Assembly (NCBI GenBank): GCA_024278215.1
Contig: JAJRTR010000007.1
Location: 1-37,612 of the forward strand
From: a bacterium
GTDB lineage: Bacteria > UBP15 > UBA6099 > JAJRTR01
Direction: 5' to 3'
DNA: 37,612 bases
In this document: positions 5,255-36,990 of the stretch, one piece after another
Position numbering within the stretch: position 1 is the stretch's first letter
Layout of the letters: every line of letters starts with the position of its first letter
Made by a program: the position numbers and the translations under genes
The notes under the pieces: generated by a model
The model's database searches: none
What the model was told of the DNA's origin: nothing
The model's input: only the letters and a program-made list of their open reading frames with translations

Positions 5255-6367
5255 TCAATTGAGGAACGGGGTTATTTCCTCCGCCATTTTCGCGGCAACG
5301 CCCGGCGTATAATGCTTCCCGGCTGTTTCCGCCATACTTTCGAGTGTTGCAGGACTCTCAAGCAGTTCGAATATTTCTTTGTCGAGTTTTTCTCCGGTCA
5401 TGTCGGCGTCCGCGATCATTTTCGCCGCACCCTTCGCTTCGAGTTCACGCGCGTTGTGGAACTGATGGTCAGCCGTGGCGAAAGGATAGGGCACAAGGAT
5501 CGCGGGTATGCCGATGGAAGTCACTTCGGCTATCGTCGTAGCCCCGGCCCTGCACACCACGAGGTCGCACGCGCAATAGGCTTCGAACATCTCGTGCAGA
5601 TAATCTTTCACGACCACCTTCAGCAACATATCATCGCCCGGCGCGATCTCTCTATAATGTTTCTTCGCGGCATCATAATTGTTTTTGCCCGCGAGGTGCA
5701 GTATCTGCACGTCGCTTCTGTCCCTGTTTAGGCTTGCAAATTCATAAGCCGCCGTGTTGATGGACTGCGCCCCCTGGCTGCCGCCGAAGATAAATACTGT
5801 TTTTCTCTCCAGATCGAGCCCCAGCATTTCACGCGCTTTTCTCTTATCCATTTTCTTCATTCCGTCGAACCGCGACGGATTGCCTGTAAATATCGCTTTA
5901 TCGCCGAATTCGCGGGCGGTCGTTTCGTAGCTGACGAAGACTCCGCGGGCAAATCGCGACAGCATCCTGTTTGCTTTGCCGACGACGGAATTCTGCTCGT
6001 GAATGAACACCGCCCTGCGGCAGAGCGCTCCGCCTATCACGGTCGGGAAGGAGCCGTAGCCGCCGAATCCCACGATGACGTCGGGATCGACTCGCCTCAC
6101 CATCGACATTCCATTTGCAGCTACCGCCATTATCTCGACTCCGAAAAGCAGGGTTTGCGCGGACAACTTTCGCTTCGGTATTTTTACGACACGAACCGGC
6201 TCAAACCCGAGTTCGTATCGTTCCGCGATTACCTGTTCCTGCCCGTCTTTTTTTCCCGCTATCAGCACTTGAATGCGGGATTGCATCTGTTGCAAGTGTT
6301 TTGCGAGGGCTATCGCCGGATATATATGGCCGCCCGTCCCCGCTACTCCCAAGAGTACTTTTGGCAT
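5255..6367 (-). CDS. murG: Lipid II GlcNAc transferase MurG
   Basis: GTGGHIYPA, GFGGY, HEQN, GGSQGA, CRAGATTIAE, HQFHNA. Start placed at ATG 6367 behind GGAGG. Confidence 0.97.
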   Translation of the reverse strand: MPKVLLGVAGTGGHIYPAIALAKHLQQMQSRIQVLIAGKKDGQEQVIAERYELGFEPVRVVKIPKRKLSAQTLLFGVEIMAVAANGMSMVRRVDPDVIVGFGGYGSFPTVIGGALCRRAVFIHEQNSVVGKANRMLSRFARGVFVSYETTAREFGDKAIFTGNPSRFDGMKKMDKRKAREMLGLDLERKTVFIFGGSQGAQSINTAAYEFASLNRDRSDVQILHLAGKNNYDAAKKHYREIAPGDDMLLKVVVKDYLHEMFEAYCACDLVVCRAGATTIAEVTSIGIPAILVPYPFATADHQFHNARELEAKGAAKMIADADMTGEKLDKEIFELLESPATLESMAETAGKHYTPGVAAKMAEEITPFLN

Positions 6368-30772: not shown

Positions 30773-31270
30773 TCAACCGAACCATTTTGTGGCAAGGTCG
30801 ATTGCGAATTGCCCGACCAGCAGCACGATATAGTATCTGACTACTTTTCCGATGAATGAAACAACGAGGAAGTTGCGGAGGTCTATTTTTAAAATACCGG
30901 ACGCAACCGATGTAAGCGACACCGGCGGCACACTGATTATATTTGAAACCAGCACTACCGCCTCGCGCACATTGCCCAGTCTGCCTGTATCGAAACTCTC
31001 GATTTTGTTCTTCACTTTGACGCTCATCTTCATAGCGCCGCTGCCCATCGAGTAATATATCCAGCTCCCCGGCACACTGCCCGCCGCAGCCACGACCGGA
31101 AGCAGCCACGGGAAACTCGTGCTGTATTGCGCTATGTCAATCTGCGTGCCGAATATATTGAATGTCATCATGTCCATATTCGCCAGCACAAGCAGCGCCA
31201 GTTCCGACGGCAGAAAAAAGAACACGCTCGAAATGAACGCGCATATCGGGGCGAGAATATATGCAGCCAT
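30773..31270 (-). CDS. VTT/DedA-like (YqaA/SNARE-associated) membrane protein
   Basis: FFLPSE, AAAGSVPGSWIYYSMG, SVASGILK, F....FIGKVVRY. The ORF-track extension to 31348 lies inside the MITE, so the start is placed at ATG 31270. Confidence 0.75.
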   Translation of the reverse strand: MAAYILAPICAFISSVFFFLPSELALLVLANMDMMTFNIFGTQIDIAQYSTSFPWLLPVVAAAGSVPGSWIYYSMGSGAMKMSVKVKNKIESFDTGRLGNVREAVVLVSNIISVPPVSLTSVASGILKIDLRNFLVVSFIGKVVRYYIVLLVGQFAIDLATKWFG

Positions 31271-31297
31271 TGTACCTTTTCTTAAAACACAGTCCGG

Positions 31298-31478
31298 AGA
31301 GCCAATTGCAAAATTATGATTCGGCTGCGGTCGACTGCAACTGTCCATAGCTGCGTTGTCGGCACAAAATCATCCTCAACGTACTCGGCGAGTACACCTG
31401 CGGGGATTTTGCACCTCCGCCTTGCTTCTGAAAAATTTCGTTCGACCTCGCTACGAACATAACTTCGCAATTGGCTCT
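31298..31478. mobile_element. ~180-bp MITE-like element with terminal inverted repeats
   Basis: The left end AGAGCCAATTGCAAAATTATGATTCG and the reverse complement of the right end AGAGCCAATTGCGAAGTTATG-TTCG match. The right end finishes in ...CTCTA. Internal nested palindromes (caaaatc...gattttg, gtactc...gagtac). No coding capacity. Confidence 0.75.
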
Positions 31479-31504
31479 ATTTATTGTCAGGCAGCATACT
31501 CCAA

Positions 31505-31720
31505 CTATTTCATGGCTTCGGCCAGATGTCTCGCAATTGGTTTCGCCAGTTTTTTTGATATGTCGGACATCTCAATGCCTATCACTTTTCCGTCTTCGCC
31601 ATATTCCAGCCTGACATTGTCCTCTACTTCTTCCGAATGCAGTGAAAAACCGCTGCCGAATGAAATATAAAGAATATCTACATCTTCATCAAACCAGACT
31701 TTTACTTTATTCTTACCCAT
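31505..31720 (-). CDS. DUF2283 small protein (putative antitoxin)
   Basis: WFDEDVDILYISF...EVEDNVRLEYGEDGKVIGIE is the DUF2283 pattern; AGGAGG RBS before ATG 31720. Confidence 0.85.
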   Translation of the reverse strand: MGKNKVKVWFDEDVDILYISFGSGFSLHSEEVEDNVRLEYGEDGKVIGIEMSDISKKLAKPIARHLAEAMK

Positions 31721-31989
31721 CTCGTCCCCTCCTTCTTTTTCAGTTCTTTCTCCAGGTTTCGGCATGGGTATACCGTAACGATCTTAATCACGTTCTCCAT
31801 TTTTATAAACGGAACTACGAGGTTGGTTTCCACACCGCCAATTTTCACTTTCCTTAATGCGACCATTGTCCGGTAGGCCAGATCGTAGTACACGTAATCA
31901 GGCGCATCGACCGCTTTCTCTATCTCTTATTTTCTGAGCCCGCGTTCTCGCAGTTTGAGTTTCGCGTGTTTTGAATATTCTATCTTCAC
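31702..31989 (-). pseudogene. DUF4258 (RelE-like putative toxin) with an in-frame TAA at codon 21
   Basis: From GTG 31989: MKIEYSKHAKLKLRERGLRK*EIEKAVDAPDYVYYD...IKIVTVYP. The stop is at 31927-31929. The HA..+..ERG and IVTVY motifs fit DUF4258, and the gene overlaps DUF2283. Confidence 0.8.
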
Positions 31990-32081
31990 TTGTGTTCCGG
32001 TTTATCCGGGAATCTTTCCTTTCGTCCCGATCAATAATCACCATGTATTTTACTTCCACGACTATGTTATCCATATTTTTC

Positions 32082-32110
32082 ATTATACCCTTCAAAACAC
32101 GCAGGGGCAA
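32082..32110 (-). promoter_or_regulatory. Putative sigma70 promoter upstream of the DUF4258/DUF2283 pair
   Basis: Minus strand TTGCCC-17 nt-TATAAT. Confidence 0.5.
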
Positions 32111-32129
32111 GATAACTCAATGGTTCTTA

Positions 32130-32290
32130 AAACCGCAAACCGGCCGGGCGTTAGGGTTAGCTCCCTGCCAGACCGACCGGCGCTTTGGGTTTTATTCGGG
32201 CGGCGAATCATGTCCGCCGCCACGGGAATGAGACTGGACTTTTCACGCCCGCTCCGAAGGTCCACCGGGATTCTTCGGATTCCGGCTTTT
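32130..32290 (-). ncRNA. Structured GC-rich non-coding element, possible DGR spacer RNA remnant
   Basis: Three stems: 32253-32259/32273-32279, 32199-32207/32213-32221 and 32140-32147/32173-32180 (with an inner AGGG/CCCT). It lies downstream of the avd fragment, where TR, spacer and RT would normally follow. Confidence 0.45.
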
Positions 32291-32343
32291 GTGTGTCCTT
32301 TCCCCCGTGTTCTTTGTGTCTCCGTGTTTGATCTTTAGTTTTT

Positions 32344-32428
32344 TTCAACACAGAGGCACGGAGGGCACAGAGAAATTCTTGGAAAATTCAATTTCTTCCC
32401 CCTGTGTCCTCTTTGCCTCTGTGTTGAA
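32344..32428. repeat. Imperfect palindromic (REP-like) repeat truncating the avd fragment
   Basis: TTCAACACAGAGGCA (32344-32358) pairs with TGCCTCTGTGTTGAA (32414-32428); inner GAGGGCACAG/CTGTGTCCTC. A degenerate single arm lies at ~32300-32330. Confidence 0.75.
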
Positions 32429-32443
32429 CCTTTTAATCTTTTT

Positions 32444-32551
32444 TCTCGTTCCAAGCGTGTATCGCTTGTTTTTCGGGAATCGCGCCGCCCGTTCCATCAG
32501 CCATTTGGTCACGAGATACGCTTTTTCAAGTGCGACTGCTTCGGTTGAAAT
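32444..32551 (-). pseudogene. avd: 5' fragment of an Avd-like (four-helix-bundle) DGR accessory gene
   Basis: 36 codons, (I)STEAVALEKAYLVTKWLMERAARFPKNKRYTLGTR, matching the Avd-family N-terminus KxYxxxxWxxxxxxxFPxxx+xxLGxR. The start position is ATT behind AGGTG. Homology stops just before the palindrome. Confidence 0.7.
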
Positions 32552-32587
32552 TCTGAAACACCTGTCTTTCTGAAAAAAAAATCGCGA

Positions 32588-32606
32588 GCAGGGACTCCGC
32601 CCCTGC
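32588..32606 (-). other. GGA-triloop hairpin downstream of the DGR variable region
   Basis: Minus strand GCAGGGGC-GGA-GTCCCTGC: an 8-bp stem with one G-T pair, followed by a T tract. Confidence 0.65.
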
Positions 32607-32611
32607 ACCCC

Positions 32612-32701
32612 GACAAAGGACAAAGGACAAAGGACAAAGGACAAAGGATCAAAGGATCAAAGGATCAAAGGATCAAAGGATCAAAGGATCAAAGGATCAA
32701 A
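32612..32701. repeat. Short tandem repeat array: (GACAAAG)x5 then (GATCAAAG)x~7
   Basis: Read directly from the sequence; it abuts the stop codon of the CLec lipoprotein gene. Confidence 0.97.
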
Positions 32702-35700
32702 TCAGTCCTGGGCACAACGAAAGCCGTTCTGGAGGTACGAGTAGGTCGGATAGTACCCGTAGCGGTTGGACGCCCGCACGCGCCTCGGGTAGTCGCCCCA
32801 CGAGCCGCCCCGCAAAACACGGTAAGTACCAGACGTCGGACCTGTGGGATCAGTTGTCGGACTTGATGAATAGTAACTTGAACTATACCAGTCGTTCACC
32901 CATTCCCATACGTTCCCCGCCATGTCCATGGCTCCGTAATAGCTCGCCCCGGACGAGTAACTGCCCACTTCCGTTGTGTCTCCGACACAATATGATCCGT
33001 TTTTGAAGTTCGCCAGCGAACACGTCGGGGCCGTGTCGGCCCACGAATAGATATTCTCGCTCGGACTTGGTCCACGCGCCGCTTTCTCCCATTCGGCTTC
33101 GGTGGGCAACCGACCGCCGATCCAGCCGCAGTACGTGCTCGCTTTGTTCCAGTCAACGTATATCACCGGGTAGTTATCGTACGTCGCATTGCCATAATAT
33201 GACGAATGAGTATAAGATGCCGAGCTTGACGGCGCGGAGCACGTGCCCGTGTCCACGCAGGCTTTATACTGCGCGTTCGTCACTTCGTACTTCTGTATCT
33301 TGTACTCGGAAAGCGTCACCGTATGTTTGGGCGATTCTTCGCTGTAGCAATCCGTATCCGCGGCGGCGCAGCCCATGACGAAGTCCCCGGCGGAAATGGT
33401 CAACCATGCGTTGGTGTCCTTTGCGTCGTTCTGGCAGGTGGCCGAGCATCCGTCGCCCCCGGTGGTGTTGCCGTCGTCGCATGTCTCTCCGTTGCTTGTG
33501 TCGGTGGTGGAGTAGCCGCAGAAGGAGACCGTTCCCGATGCCGTCTGGCAAGTGGCATTACATACGTCGCAACTCGTCTGGCCATAGGTGCAGGTTTCTG
33601 TAACGGTGTTGCCGTCGTCGCATGTTTCGCCTGATTCGGTCACGCTATTACCGCAGACGGACGTTGTGGTTCCGTCGCACGTGGCGTTGCAGTAGTTTGG
33701 CTGGCCGTTGTTCGAGCCGTCGTCGCAGGTTTCGCCCTGTTCGGTGGTTCCGTTACCGCATACCGGCCCGCTCACTCCATAGTCCTGGGCACACCGAAAA
33801 CCGATGACGTTGTACGCGAGGGTCGGATTGTGGTTGTTGCGGTTGGACGCCCGCAAGTTCCCCGAGTTGACGTCCCACGAGCCGCCACGAAGAACACGGT
33901 AAGTACCGGACGTCGGGCCCGGAGGATCAGTCGACGGACTCGATGAATAATAACTCACATCATACCAGTCGTTTACCCATTCCCATACGTTCCCCGCCAT
34001 GTCCATGACGCCGTAATAGCTCGCACCGGATGCGTAGCTTCCCACTTCCGTTGTGTCACCGACATTATAGTCTAAGTTCGCAAGCGATGACGTCGGAGCC
34101 GTGTCGCCCCAGGGATATATGTTCTCGCTCGGACTCGGCCCGCGTGCCGCCTTCTCCCATTCCGCTTCAGTCGGCATCCGCCCGCCTATCCAGCCGCAAT
34201 ATGTACTCGCCTGGGTCCAGCTCACGTATATCACCGGATAATTGTCATAAGTCGCATTGCCGTAATATGACGAATGAGTATAAGATGACGTGTCTGACGG
34301 CGCGGTGCACGTTCCCGCGTCCACGCAGGCTTTATACTGCGCGTTCGTTACTTCGTACTTCTGTATCTTATACTCGGAAATCGTCACTGTGTGTTTGGGC
34401 GATTCATTGTTGTTGCAATCCGTATCCGCGGCGGCGCAGCCCATGACGAAGTCCCCGGCGGAAATGGTCAGCCATGCGTTGGTGTCCTTTGCATCGTTCT
34501 GGCAGGTGGCCGAGCATCCGTCGCCCCCGGTGGTGTTGCCGTCGTCGCATGTCTCTCCGCTGCCGGTGTCGGTCGTGGAGTCGCCGCAGAAGGAGACCGT
34601 TCCCGATGCCGTCTGGCAAGTGGCGTTACATACGTCGCAACTCGTCTGGCCATACGTGCAGGTTTCGGTAACGGTGTTGCCGTCGTCGCAGGTTTCGCCA
34701 GACTCGACCAGGCTGTTGCCGCACACGGAACCGGTCATACCGTCGCAGGTAGTGTTGCAATAATTTGGCTGACCGTTGTTCGAGCCGTCGTCGCATGTCT
34801 CTCCGTTGCCTGTGTCGGTGGTGGAGTCGCCGCAGAAGGAGACTGTTCCCGATGCCGTTTGGCAAGTGGCGTTACATACGTCGCAACTCGTCTGGCCATA
34901 CGTGCAGGTTTCTGTAACGGTGTTGCCGTCGTCGCAGGTCTCGCTGTTAACGGTATCTGTGTTTCCGTCACCACAATAGGGGCCGTTTACTACTGTTACC
35001 TGTGCACTGCCGGAAATTGTTCCGGATGTGGCAGCGACAGTACCGACGCCTTCTGTGATTGCGGTGAACAGACCGCTGGAGTCGATTGTACCGACGCCGC
35101 CCGTGACACTCCATGTTATAGCCATGGTGGCAGTTGCTGTAACGGCCATGCCGTAAGTGTTTTTCGGTGTGGCGGTAAATTGTGCTGTCGCGCCCACCGC
35201 GACCGTTGTGGTGGCGGGTGAGACGTCGATGATTGAAACCACAGACCCGGTGTTCTCGTAGTCCAGCACATCCTGTATGTTGATGTTCCGGTAATCGCAG
35301 CCCGAGTTGTGGAACGCATCCACGGCGGCGGTCAGGTTGTCTATCTTATCCTGAGACACCCTGGAGAGAATCACGCCTTCGCGCGCGGCCAGTGCCACGG
35401 CAGCGTCGGCGATTACCGTGGTGCGGTAATCTGCCGTGCCGCGGGTTAGTTCGCCCTCGCGGATTTCCGGGATAATACACTTTATTGTATCGGTGGCACC
35501 ATCGGGCCATGTTGCAATCGCGGTCATGAGGTGGTTTACGCCGATGGGCACTTCGAGCATGGAGACCTTACCGTGACCGCCGGAGGCGTCGATTTGCGTT
35601 GTCGCCGTTACTGACGGGAACACGGAATCATCTTCAGCGTAGTAACCGGTGACAGTGACTATTATGTTGATAGTGCCTGTGGCTGCTGTTCCGTCGTCGC

Positions 35701-35860
35701 GGTCGGCGGTTCGGCTGTTGAAGTGAAGCTCGAACGCAGCATTGCCGTGGCCGGGCGTGGCGGATATTGAGGGTGAAACGCCGCCACCGCCTCCACCGCC
35801 ACAACCACACAGAATAGCGAATACAGCGAGCACTACTGTTATCATCAATGTTTTTTTCAA
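32702..35860 (-). CDS. Surface lipoprotein: Ig-like domain, Cys-rich (DUF4215-like) repeats and two FGE-sulfatase/CLec domains; putative DGR target
   Basis: TTG 35860 behind AAGGAGG; lipobox LCGC plus a poly-Gly linker. Big_2-like segment (VSPATTTVAVGATAQFTA...WSV..GVGTIDSSGLFTA); CGD...GETCDDGN repeats; two copies of F.MG...EVTNAQY...R.PTEAEWEKAARG...DMAGNVWEW...RVLRGGSW...GFRCA. Confidence 0.92.
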   Translation of the reverse strand: MKKTLMITVVLAVFAILCGCGGGGGGGVSPSISATPGHGNAAFELHFNSRTADRDDGTAATGTINIIVTVTGYYAEDDSVFPSVTATTQIDASGGHGKVSMLEVPIGVNHLMTAIATWPDGATDTIKCIIPEIREGELTRGTADYRTTVIADAAVALAAREGVILSRVSQDKIDNLTAAVDAFHNSGCDYRNINIQDVLDYENTGSVVSIIDVSPATTTVAVGATAQFTATPKNTYGMAVTATATMAITWSVTGGVGTIDSSGLFTAITEGVGTVAATSGTISGSAQVTVVNGPYCGDGNTDTVNSETCDDGNTVTETCTYGQTSCDVCNATCQTASGTVSFCGDSTTDTGNGETCDDGSNNGQPNYCNTTCDGMTGSVCGNSLVESGETCDDGNTVTETCTYGQTSCDVCNATCQTASGTVSFCGDSTTDTGSGETCDDGNTTGGDGCSATCQNDAKDTNAWLTISAGDFVMGCAAADTDCNNNESPKHTVTISEYKIQKYEVTNAQYKACVDAGTCTAPSDTSSYTHSSYYGNATYDNYPVIYVSWTQASTYCGWIGGRMPTEAEWEKAARGPSPSENIYPWGDTAPTSSLANLDYNVGDTTEVGSYASGASYYGVMDMAGNVWEWVNDWYDVSYYSSSPSTDPPGPTSGTYRVLRGGSWDVNSGNLRASNRNNHNPTLAYNVIGFRCAQDYGVSGPVCGNGTTEQGETCDDGSNNGQPNYCNATCDGTTTSVCGNSVTESGETCDDGNTVTETCTYGQTSCDVCNATCQTASGTVSFCGYSTTDTSNGETCDDGNTTGGDGCSATCQNDAKDTNAWLTISAGDFVMGCAAADTDCYSEESPKHTVTLSEYKIQKYEVTNAQYKACVDTGTCSAPSSSASYTHSSYYGNATYDNYPVIYVDWNKASTYCGWIGGRLPTEAEWEKAARGPSPSENIYSWADTAPTCSLANFKNGSYCVGDTTEVGSYSSGASYYGAMDMAGNVWEWVNDWYSSSYYSSSPTTDPTGPTSGTYRVLRGGSWGDYPRRVRASNRYGYYPTYSYLQNGFRCAQD
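32705..32809 (-). repeat. Putative DGR variable region, terminal copy (VR2)
   Basis: GGSWGDYPRRVRASNRYGYYPTYSYLQNGFRCAQD; differs from VR1 mainly at codon positions 1-2. Confidence 0.8.
33782..33886 (-). repeat. Putative DGR variable region, internal copy (VR1)
   Basis: GGSWDVNSGNLRASNRNNHNPTLAYNVIGFRCAQD; AAC-rich, with the same 3' end TGTGCCCAGGACT as VR2. Confidence 0.75.
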
Positions 35861-35943
35861 TTGAACAACCTCCTTTTTATAACCATGAATACCGCCTTCA
35901 TAACCTTCACGCAAAAATATATGATTCATACCTTTACATTCAC

Positions 35944-36990
35944 TCACGGTTCAACATATACATCTAATTCAAACTGTCCTGTCTTATAATCTTCCAGCGA
36001 CATCTCGACGATGTCGTTCGTCAACTGCTCGTCCATAACGTCATCATTGATCGTGTCGACAGCGGCGTCCGCCGCGTCAGTGACATCCATCTCCGTAGCA
36101 TCAGCCTCAACGTCAACCGGTTCCTCTATAACCGTAATATCTTTATCAGTGGATTCTCTCATTTCTGTTCCCGTTCCAGTTACAGTTCCGGATTTGGGTT
36201 TTCCCACAGCCTCACCATTTTCACCGGCAGATTTTTTATCATGCTTCATGATGCCCTTGCCATGTTCCGCACCTTTACCCTTGCCCTGCGCTCCTCTGCC
36301 TCTCTTTCTCTCCTCCTTGCCCTTCTCCAGTGTTTTTCCCCCATGAGATTCATTTTTCACCTCTTGGGCCTGTTCATGCGCCTTCTGTTTCATTTCAATC
36401 GGCATAGGCACAGCTCCACCAACTACCCCTGTGGAATCGACTGTTACAATGAAATCCGGCATGACAATAGTCTCTACGCCACCCGCCTCGACGTAAATCT
36501 CGCCAGCGGTAACACCGAAGGTTGAAATCCGGTCCGCTGACACATCCACAAAAAGGTCCGTGCCACGCACGCCCGCAACAGCGGTAGGCGTTCTTATCGT
36601 AAATGAGGATTCCACAGAACGCAGCTTGCCGACATGCGCGTTTATATTGCCTTTTGCAATAACGAACCCTGAATTTTCGTTTCCGTTACTATCACGCTCA
36701 AGCCGGGAAATGTCGAGAGTAGTCAGCGCTTGAATCTTCAACACATGTCCGTTGCCCCATAAAAGAAGGCACGACGATGACGGCCCGGTTCGCACGGTCG
36801 CACCGACAGACAACTTACCGCCCGCGGCAACTTCGGTCCACTCCGCCCCGGCTGACGTGCGTGCCTCAACCACGCCATCTACTCTCTGTACTGTCACCAA
36901 AGTCTGTTCGGCAACCGCCGCATTGATTCCGAAAAGAATCACCATGGCGACCACCGCCGCTATCATATTCAATTTCCATAAGTTTTTCAT
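35944..36990 (-). CDS. Secreted FecR-domain protein with a low-complexity basic then acidic C-terminus
   Basis: Signal peptide; G..VRTGPSS...FTIRTPTAVAGVRGTD...V..GEIYV FecR motifs. Confidence 0.82.
   Translation of the reverse strand: MKNLWKLNMIAAVVAMVILFGINAAVAEQTLVTVQRVDGVVEARTSAGAEWTEVAAGGKLSVGATVRTGPSSSCLLLWGNGHVLKIQALTTLDISRLERDSNGNENSGFVIAKGNINAHVGKLRSVESSFTIRTPTAVAGVRGTDLFVDVSADRISTFGVTAGEIYVEAGGVETIVMPDFIVTVDSTGVVGGAVPMPIEMKQKAHEQAQEVKNESHGGKTLEKGKEERKRGRGAQGKGKGAEHGKGIMKHDKKSAGENGEAVGKPKSGTVTGTGTEMRESTDKDITVIEEPVDVEADATEMDVTDAADAAVDTINDDVMDEQLTNDIVEMSLEDYKTGQFELDVYVEP

Follow-up and report, generated by a model that had tools for sequence, protein, structure and literature searches.

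The 37,612-nt contig JAJRTR010000007.1, from a bacterium of the GTDB lineage UBP15; UBA6099; JAJRTR01, was analysed at its full length and is called the window below. Its reverse strand carries a lipoprotein gene that is probably a relic target of a diversity-generating retroelement (DGR): two variable regions of the gene, an internal one (VR1) and a terminal one (VR2), would both have been written from one template region (TR) and would now be frozen. We put the probability of this reading at about 60%. The evidence consists of a tandem duplication within the gene, an unusual substitution pattern in the two variable regions, a stump of the DGR accessory gene Avd beside the target, an Avd gene followed by a stump of reverse transcriptase (RT) at the syntenic locus of a related genome, and the absence of both TR and DGR RT from the assembly. 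From these observations we infer that a DGR wrote the two loops, that both were written after the modules carrying them had diverged, and that diversification has since stopped.

The window makes up the entire contig C113 of its genome (G000), a 4.55-Mb draft assembly of 207 contigs, 95% complete. Comparisons across the order covered 13 genomes, and the profile search for Avd covered 41 genomes.

Divergence of the two variable regions

The final 718 codons of the target form a pair of 359-codon modules at an offset of 1077 nt, each consisting of Cys-rich repeats and a domain of the formylglycine-generating enzyme (FGE)-sulfatase family; this tandem duplication had been described in an earlier note, made from the sequence of the window. 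VR1 and VR2, of 35 codons each, align without gaps. Between the GGSW and GFRC motifs 16 of the 24 codons differ, every one non-synonymously, and the 23 base mismatches are distributed over codon positions 1, 2 and 3 as 13, 8 and 2 (21 of 23 at positions 1–2); non-synonymous divergence (dN) is 0.58 and synonymous divergence (dS) 0.05, a dN/dS of 11.6. The remaining 331 aligned codons of the modules have 140 mismatches, distributed as 33, 19 and 88 (52 of 140 at positions 1–2), with dN 0.077, dS 0.51 and dN/dS 0.15. The difference between variable regions and the rest of the module in the shares of positions 1–2 and position 3 is not a matter of chance (Fisher p 1e-6). The counts in the earlier note were exact, and the alignment confirmed that the differences flanking the variable regions (CTT CGT/TTG CGG, GGT/GGC, CGG/CGT) are synonymous.

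The third codon positions are of particular weight. Between VR1 and VR2 they differ in 2 of 24 codons, whereas outside the count is 88 of 331 (binomial p 0.028; when the four GGSW codons are included, 0.011). Seven codons are unchanged, and the 3′ sequence TTTCGNTGTGCCCAGGAC is identical in the two regions. As third positions within the variable regions are more alike than those of the flanks, both loops would have been rewritten from one template after the modules had reached a dS of 0.51. The pattern fits the view that both variable regions, not just the terminal one, were homing targets, and is the main argument for it, though the sites are few.

One could suppose instead that the terminal variable region was the only homing site there ever was, with VR1 an older state of it captured by the duplication and VR2 still rewritten afterwards. 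Such a history would suit the fact that VR1 is followed by coding sequence without a strong hairpin, while a conserved GC hairpin follows VR2; it would also suit the metagenome protein P0002, a relative of the same build, whose variable regions are of 24 and 25 residues, which is not expected from one TR. We nevertheless regard it as unlikely: VR1 and VR2 are alike in third positions and in the seven unchanged codons beside flanks with a dS of 0.51, the same 3′ sequence is kept in both, and in the one published case of several variable regions in a single open reading frame (ORF) set against it here, the internal ones were, according to the accessible text of the report, detected by a TR-based program (PMC3521204).

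Comparison with real templates and with homologous domains

A metagenome scan with an alignment (A1) of seven homologous domains as query gave 599 confirmed relatives, and the best 80 of these, representing 78 distinct loci, were examined for TR–VR pairs with a regular expression for the variable region and an adenine-aware scan, in which mismatches at genomic adenines are forgiven (loci with a variable region outside the expression were left out). Two true pairs were found, L066 and L114, each beside an RT and an Avd and each with a variable region of 24 codons. The L066 TR and its variable region differ by 15 mismatches at adenines and 5 at other bases out of 117 positions; for L114 the numbers are 13 and 4. 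A third locus, L071, has an RT, and the adenine-aware scan found no TR in it.

Placed on these templates, 16 of the 23 mismatches between VR1 and VR2 fall on adenines of the L066 TR (p 6.5e-4) and 15 of 23 on adenines of the L114 TR (p 2e-3); the unchanged codons of the window gene (CGG GCG TCC, CGC, CCG ACC) are mostly adenine-free in both TRs. VR1 and VR2 are, on this sequence comparison, compatible with a single AAC-rich template of the kind the earlier note had proposed, and its layout would match the TRs of these related FGE targets. Such a TR would be a copy of GGCGGCTCGTGG...GGNTTTCG differing from the variable regions only at its adenines; on the relic reading it would carry adenines at the variable sites of the window gene and other bases at the seven fixed codons.

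A similar inversion of codon positions was seen among relatives. Over all pairs of the seven homologous domains, the differences at positions 1, 2 and 3 were 0.58, 0.49 and 0.44 in the variable region and 0.26, 0.20 and 0.54 outside it, and in most pairs the variable regions had far fewer third-position differences than first-position ones. NNC codons in the variable region are kept across relatives; a paralogue in G007:C29 has NNT codons across its whole variable region. The claim that both segments carry a mark of DGR mutagenesis is thus borne out by the contrast in dN/dS, by the overlap with adenines of real TRs and by the inversion in relatives.

Remains of the cassette

Downstream of the target, where a DGR cassette would sit, we saw a stump of Avd (Table 1). 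A tblastn search with the Avd from the related genome G005 matched it by residues 1–36 of that protein, with an E of 2.5e-9 over the whole genome, at 64% identity. A 99-aa frame, 32345-32644, matches the DGR Avd model NF033474 at profile positions 4-32 of 104 with an E of 0.0019, far under the cut-off of the model. Judged by its sequence, the stump is a remnant and not a gene.

The syntenic locus G005:C375, of the same order, contains in sequence a FecR gene (48% identity), a 707-aa orthologue of the target (67% identical over its N-terminal part, with a single FGE domain and a variable region of its own), a spacer with a GC hairpin, an Avd, an RT stump and unrelated DNA with small genes. The Avd is intact (115 aa, 103 bits), the sole match above the cut-off in the 41 genomes; as a query against the genome contigs it found its own contig and no other. 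The RT stump has just the first 65 residues, overlapping the Avd stop, and is 41-44% identical to DGR RTs. From the gene order of this locus, the ancestral layout would have been target, Avd, RT.

Loss of the cassette did not stop at the same point in different loci. Avd is cut at residue 36 in the window and at about residue 29 beside another gene with an FGE variable region (FGE-VR gene) in G001:C1; in the metagenome locus L053 it is cut after at least residue 38, with no RT match in the 10.7 kb of that locus. In G002:C86 the end of an FGE-VR gene is followed by a four-helix-bundle gene that an internal TAA interrupts, by a part of the repeat element of the window and by a DUF4258/DUF2283 pair; given this same order, the downstream layout of the window recurs.

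The Avd stumps of the window (32530-32560) and of G001 (L042, about 5300-5310) share an ATT TCA start region and have no ATG, unlike G005. Either the two loci share an early inactivation, or the start codon is an unusual one.

Search for the template and the reverse transcriptase

The earlier note had predicted a non-coding TR copy next to a DGR-clade RT. The genome was searched with the variable regions, and no such copy was found. In blastn, 211 nt around VR2 matched itself and VR1 only, other matches having E of at least 0.037. An adenine-aware scan of the assembly with a 129-nt query reported, apart from the other variable region, adenine-rich places with at least 56 mismatches at adenines and no TR; with a 93-nt core query the best foreign place in the assembly, at 16 non-adenine and 46 adenine mismatches, was an A-rich stretch and not a TR. 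Searching the assembly by tblastn with four DGR RTs returned only one gene, on contig C160, at 24-28% identity, and no DGR RT; nor did tblastn over the whole assembly find a second Avd. The C160 gene (G000:C160:95905-96930, locus L009) is the sole RVT_1 match of the genome and is group-II-like, with a QGGPLSP motif and 236 bits to TIGR04416 (cut-off 300).

Close homologues with an FGE variable region occur in 9 of the 13 genomes of the order; RVT_1 matches number five, in 4 of the 13, and none is beside an FGE-VR gene. Of the five, one belongs to a true DGR (G003:C176) and two are group-II-like; the remaining two are a retron-like RT and a group II intron RT with a frameshift. Adenine-aware scans also found no TR in five homologous loci of four related genomes (G005, G007 twice, G008 and G001). 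With no TR or DGR-clade RT in the assembly, and no TR in these five loci, there is no basis for claiming a DGR that works; the locus has the appearance of decay. A bivalent hypervariable lipoprotein, as pictured in the earlier note, thus keeps its lipobox and its two FGE domains and loses the support for a working DGR. The TR is absent, and the bias to template-adenine positions is present, which leaves the claim of a DGR origin unrefuted.

A DGR could still be alive outside the assembly, on an unbinned contig, a mobile element or at a distant locus, and diversify both variable regions in trans. The draft state of the assembly would allow it, DGRs with distant variable regions have been described (PMC3521204, in its accessible text), and the distribution of FGE-VR homologues and RVT_1 matches over the order would agree with cassettes being systematically missed. 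We hold this to be rather improbable. The cassette site is fully assembled and holds a cut Avd and unrelated DNA, and neither a second Avd nor a DGR RT was found; the 90% protein cluster of the target has a single member in a collection of 5.8 billion clusters, hence no variants of its variable regions were seen; and a 17-base word of the invariant scaffold of the variable regions gave just three matches in viral contigs, all of them chance matches to unrelated sequence. There is a slim chance that the FGE-VR lipoproteins of the order as a whole are still diversified in trans by a mobile or phage-borne DGR that escapes binning; if so, the window protein would be a living bivalent receptor, its two sites randomised independently from one template, the internal one without the usual downstream hairpin.

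That no retroelement was involved, the loops having diverged by positive selection on exposed parts of duplicated domains and the Avd-like stump being a fragment of an unrelated four-helix bundle, is very improbable: the lack of a TR and a DGR RT in the assembly and a non-significant test of adenine involvement would agree with it, but it leaves unexplained why third positions are closer to each other in the variable regions than in the flanks, why relatives keep NNC codons and why the mismatches overlap with adenines of real TRs, and it does not account for a stump 64% identical to an Avd that exceeds the NCBIfam cut-off and is joined to an RT stump at the syntenic locus.

Weighing the relic reading

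Several points weigh against a relic target with both loops written from one TR. Mismatches involving adenine are 15 of 23 in the variable regions and 72 of 140 outside, which is not significant (p 0.16), and neither is the ratio of transitions to transversions, 8:15 inside and 73:67 outside. The third-position argument is built on 24-28 codons, with p of 0.01-0.03, and some stretches outside the variable regions (windows 60-140) are nearly identical between the modules, an indication that local gene conversion occurs. For the two third-position differences, AAC/GGG and GTC/CAG, the template must have had AAA at codons 14 and 23, or drift must have followed later. VR1 has no hairpin downstream (z 0.76), and VR2 has one. 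As there is no TR to compare with, the adenine rule is judged by proxies, namely the inversion of codon positions and the overlap with adenines of the L066 and L114 TRs. An early inactivation of Avd shared by the window and G001 would fit badly with variable regions that are wholly different between these genomes. Finally, with an assembly in draft state, a DGR could be present elsewhere in the organism.

If the relic reading is right, the history of the locus could have been as follows. A lipid-anchored protein would display two non-catalytic FGE-type (C-type-lectin-fold) domains on a Cys-rich, disulfide-rich stalk; the ligand-facing loop of each domain would be the 24 codons from GGSW to GFRC, written by the DGR through mutagenic retrohoming. 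The DGR would once have been located directly downstream of its target, in the order target, Avd, RT, with the TR nearby. Both loops would have been replaced through error-prone reverse transcription from a single AAC-rich TR, with adenines randomised and other bases copied faithfully. The cassette would later have been destroyed, with Avd cut after residue 36 and the TR and RT gone, and a hairpin, a repeat element and a small toxin-antitoxin-like module would now fill its former site. With the cassette gone the two loops would be fixed, frozen at their last written states as two different binding surfaces in one protein. Most likely, the target is a protein with two distinct stable specificities, its loops differing at 16 of 24 residues.

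Architecture of the target

The frame of the target is open from 35947 (32702..35947, reverse strand), with a likely TTG start at 35860 behind AAGGAGG, which agrees with the start taken in the earlier note. The order of parts is signal peptide, an N-terminal domain of no known family, Big_2, Cys-rich repeats, FGE domain 1, Cys-rich repeats, FGE domain 2. The signal peptide has KK, a hydrophobic run and LCGC, and relatives show LSGC or LAGC at the aligned place; the call of signal peptide and lipobox was made by direct reading of the sequence and of aligned relatives, and on that reading the protein is a bacterial lipoprotein with a lipobox Cys. No Pfam or NCBIfam family matches the N-terminal domain (about 200 residues, 35150-35800, reverse strand); the domain shares 67% identity with its G005 counterpart and is kept in proteins P0002, P0004, P0006 and P0008.

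Pfam gives two FGE-sulfatase stretches (PF03781, E 1.7e-108), and the Cys-rich acidic repeats match DUF4215 (Pfam) and TIGR02232 (NCBIfam). The variable GGSW...GFRC segment ends the FGE domain, which places the protein in the class of DGR targets of FGE-sulfatase (CLec) type. The best solved relatives of the domains are formylglycine-generating enzymes of the same family (PDB 6MUJ and 2Q17, E 5e-36). The enzyme has LCHDSYC, with cysteines that we take to be the catalytic pair, at the place of the variable region; in 6MUJ this motif faces a gap and GDYP of the window protein, and VR1 is also without Cys. Since neither enzyme cysteine is present and LCHDSYC aligns at the place of the variable region, the domains are read from their sequence as binding modules, not enzymes.

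At G000:C155:57-749 (reverse strand; L034, L039) the genome holds an extra, truncated copy of the Cys-rich/FGE module, which over 196 residues shares 82% identity with domain 2. An in-frame TGA interrupts its repeat part, and it stops short of the variable region; a CEGDGREEPKH motif in it corresponds to the second module of P0002. The idea that this copy marks an assembly break at a hypervariable region was dropped on account of its truncation, its in-frame TGA and its lack of a variable region, which mark it as a pseudo-copy.

Table 1. Features in and around the target gene (window coordinates)
Feature	Position	Strand	Remark
DUF2283 gene, intact	31505..31765	-	layout as in G002:C86
DUF4258-like frame, broken by in-frame TAA	about 31766-32000	-	ahead of DUF2283 gene; presumably DUF4258, by likeness to the intact G002 copy
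GC-rich repeat ending in TATAAT box, at the place of the rest of the cassette, with small genes after it	32078..32304	-	3 genome copies
Long near-perfect inverted repeat, where the Avd likeness stops	32345..32428	.	self match on other strand
Avd stump, residues 1-36 only, no ATG where the intact relative has one	32444..32551	-	64% identity to G005 Avd
GC hairpin then T run, terminator-like	32586..32602	-	conserved in G005, G001 and L053
Tandem repeats GATCCTTTG then TCCTTTG, perfect array directly after the stop	32614..32701	-	11.5 copies (TRF)
Target lipoprotein gene	32702..35860	-	~1052 aa counted from TTG 35860
Tandem module 2, 359 codons: Cys-rich repeats and FGE-sulfatase domain 2	32705..33781	-	codon alignment
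VR2, terminal: GGSW GDYPRRVRASNRYGYYPTYSYLQN GFRCAQD	32705-32809	-	2 AAY codons; codon alignment
Tandem module 1, 359 codons: Cys-rich repeats and FGE-sulfatase domain 1	33782..34858	-	codon alignment
VR1, internal: GGSW DVNSGNLRASNRNNHNPTLAYNVI GFRCAQD	33782-33886	-	7 AAY codons; no strong hairpin downstream
Big_2 Ig-like domain	34991..35239	-	Pfam E 9.8e-5, just under Pfam cut-off
Signal peptide and lipobox KKTLMITVVLAVFAILCGC, then Gly run	35801..35860	-	direct reading
FecR-domain gene, upstream of target	35944..36990	-	syntenic with G005 locus, 48% identity

Other features of the region

At the place of the tandem array, ahead of the GC hairpin, G005, G001 and L053 have a degenerate CCTTTG-rich spacer. 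As to a 3′ homing signal (IMH) of a DGR, the two variable regions share their 3′ sequence; the GC hairpin, present after VR2 only, could equally well be a terminator as a target-recognition hairpin of a DGR. Rfam has nothing at gathering scores in the window, and at E of up to 1 in 31000-32800 it has only miRNA-type matches to the hairpin at 32345-32428.

The GC-rich element, of about 190-230 nt, has further copies at G000:C155:13197-13420 and G000:C125:10247-10460, with 81-84% identity among the copies; every copy has a TATAAT box at its end, with small toxin-antitoxin-like genes after it, and part of the element is also present in L015 (G002:C86). Its predicted fold has 62 pairs, two of them with a compensatory change in the three sequences, and no Rfam match; the structure is only a prediction. 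The DUF2283 protein of the window shares 85% identity with that of G002:C86, whereas the FGE domains of these genomes are far less alike, a hint at a mobile module. Two small genes, presumably resembling a toxin-antitoxin pair, follow the RT stump of G005 (L038, 7700-8250) at the place of the DGR RT; a small-gene module is thus situated at the expected place of the DGR RT in both G005 and the window.

The RT gene on C160 has a weak GIIM match, adjoins an HTH_17 gene and a phage-integrase-like gene, and has an orthologue in G003:C157. The true DGR of the order, L011 (G003:C176:1-2491), is small and complete, with a target end carrying a variable region, an Avd, a TR (translated GRICNSNFNAGNANNGAFNSNFNNLPSNVNANIGSRLAK) and an RT; its target is of phage type, not FGE.

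Relation to known systems

The prototype, the DGR of Bordetella phage BPP-1 (Mtd, Avd, TR, bRT), serves a phage tail fibre, uses another lectin subtype and still has its whole cassette. It resembles the loci considered here in the order target, Avd, RT, as in G005, and in a C-terminal variable region within a lectin-type fold; unlike it, the window gene is chromosomal, its cassette is decayed and its target has two variable regions. TvpA of Treponema denticola has one domain, one variable region and an intact DGR, unlike the window gene. It is likewise a lipoprotein with an FGE-type domain and a C-terminal variable region, and its structure (PDB 2Y3C) matches the window domain over residues 87-242 with an E of 3.1e-19.

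P0002, a 1200-aa metagenome protein 65% identical to the target, shares its N-terminal domain, lipobox, Cys-rich repeats and two FGE modules, with a homologous junction after the first GFRCAQD; its two modules share 201 of 214 residues outside the variable region and 8 of 25 within it. It differs in two extra domains of about 100 residues each between the modules and in the unequal length of its variable regions.

The earlier note had called an internal plus a terminal variable region in one chromosomal gene unusual. This was overstated: beside P0002, the accessible texts of three papers describe ORFs with several variable regions. In Marichromatium purpuratum 984 a single 3366-bp ORF, MarpuDRAFT_1558, has three tandem FGE-sulfatase paralogues with a variable region in each (Schillinger et al. 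2012, PMC3521204); Wu et al. (2018) list one CLec1 target gene with three variable regions, two of them internal (PMC5758913); and Yan et al. report 31 DGRs in which several variable regions overlap one ORF (PMC6642488). As far as the accessible text goes, MarpuDRAFT_1558 is similar to the window gene in having tandem FGE-sulfatase modules in one ORF, each with its own variable region and at least one of these internal; it is different in that it was found via its TR and RT, with the cassette present, while the window gene has two modules, an Avd stump and no TR or RT. Several variable regions in one ORF are therefore already known, and the contribution of the window lies in its decayed cassette and in the way such decay recurs in its lineage. 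A narrow literature search on decayed or orphan DGR loci returned text on 'inactive DGR', and the portions accessible had no passage on loss of a cassette beside a kept target; we do not claim that such loci are undescribed.

Significance

The locus shows clearly what remains once a DGR has gone: NNC codons with positions 1–2 scrambled, third positions and scaffold codons untouched, and the cassette cut away. The window protein and P0002 are a second and a third example of tandem FGE modules with separate variable regions in one protein, and the third-position argument offers a way to ask from sequence alone if an internal variable region was a homing target. The differing cut points in the window, G001 and G005, together with the four-helix-bundle pseudogene of G002, suggest repeated loss of the mutator with the diversified receptor kept. 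Such repeated loss of the cassette bears on the conditions under which hypermutation is worth its cost and those under which a fixed specificity is retained.

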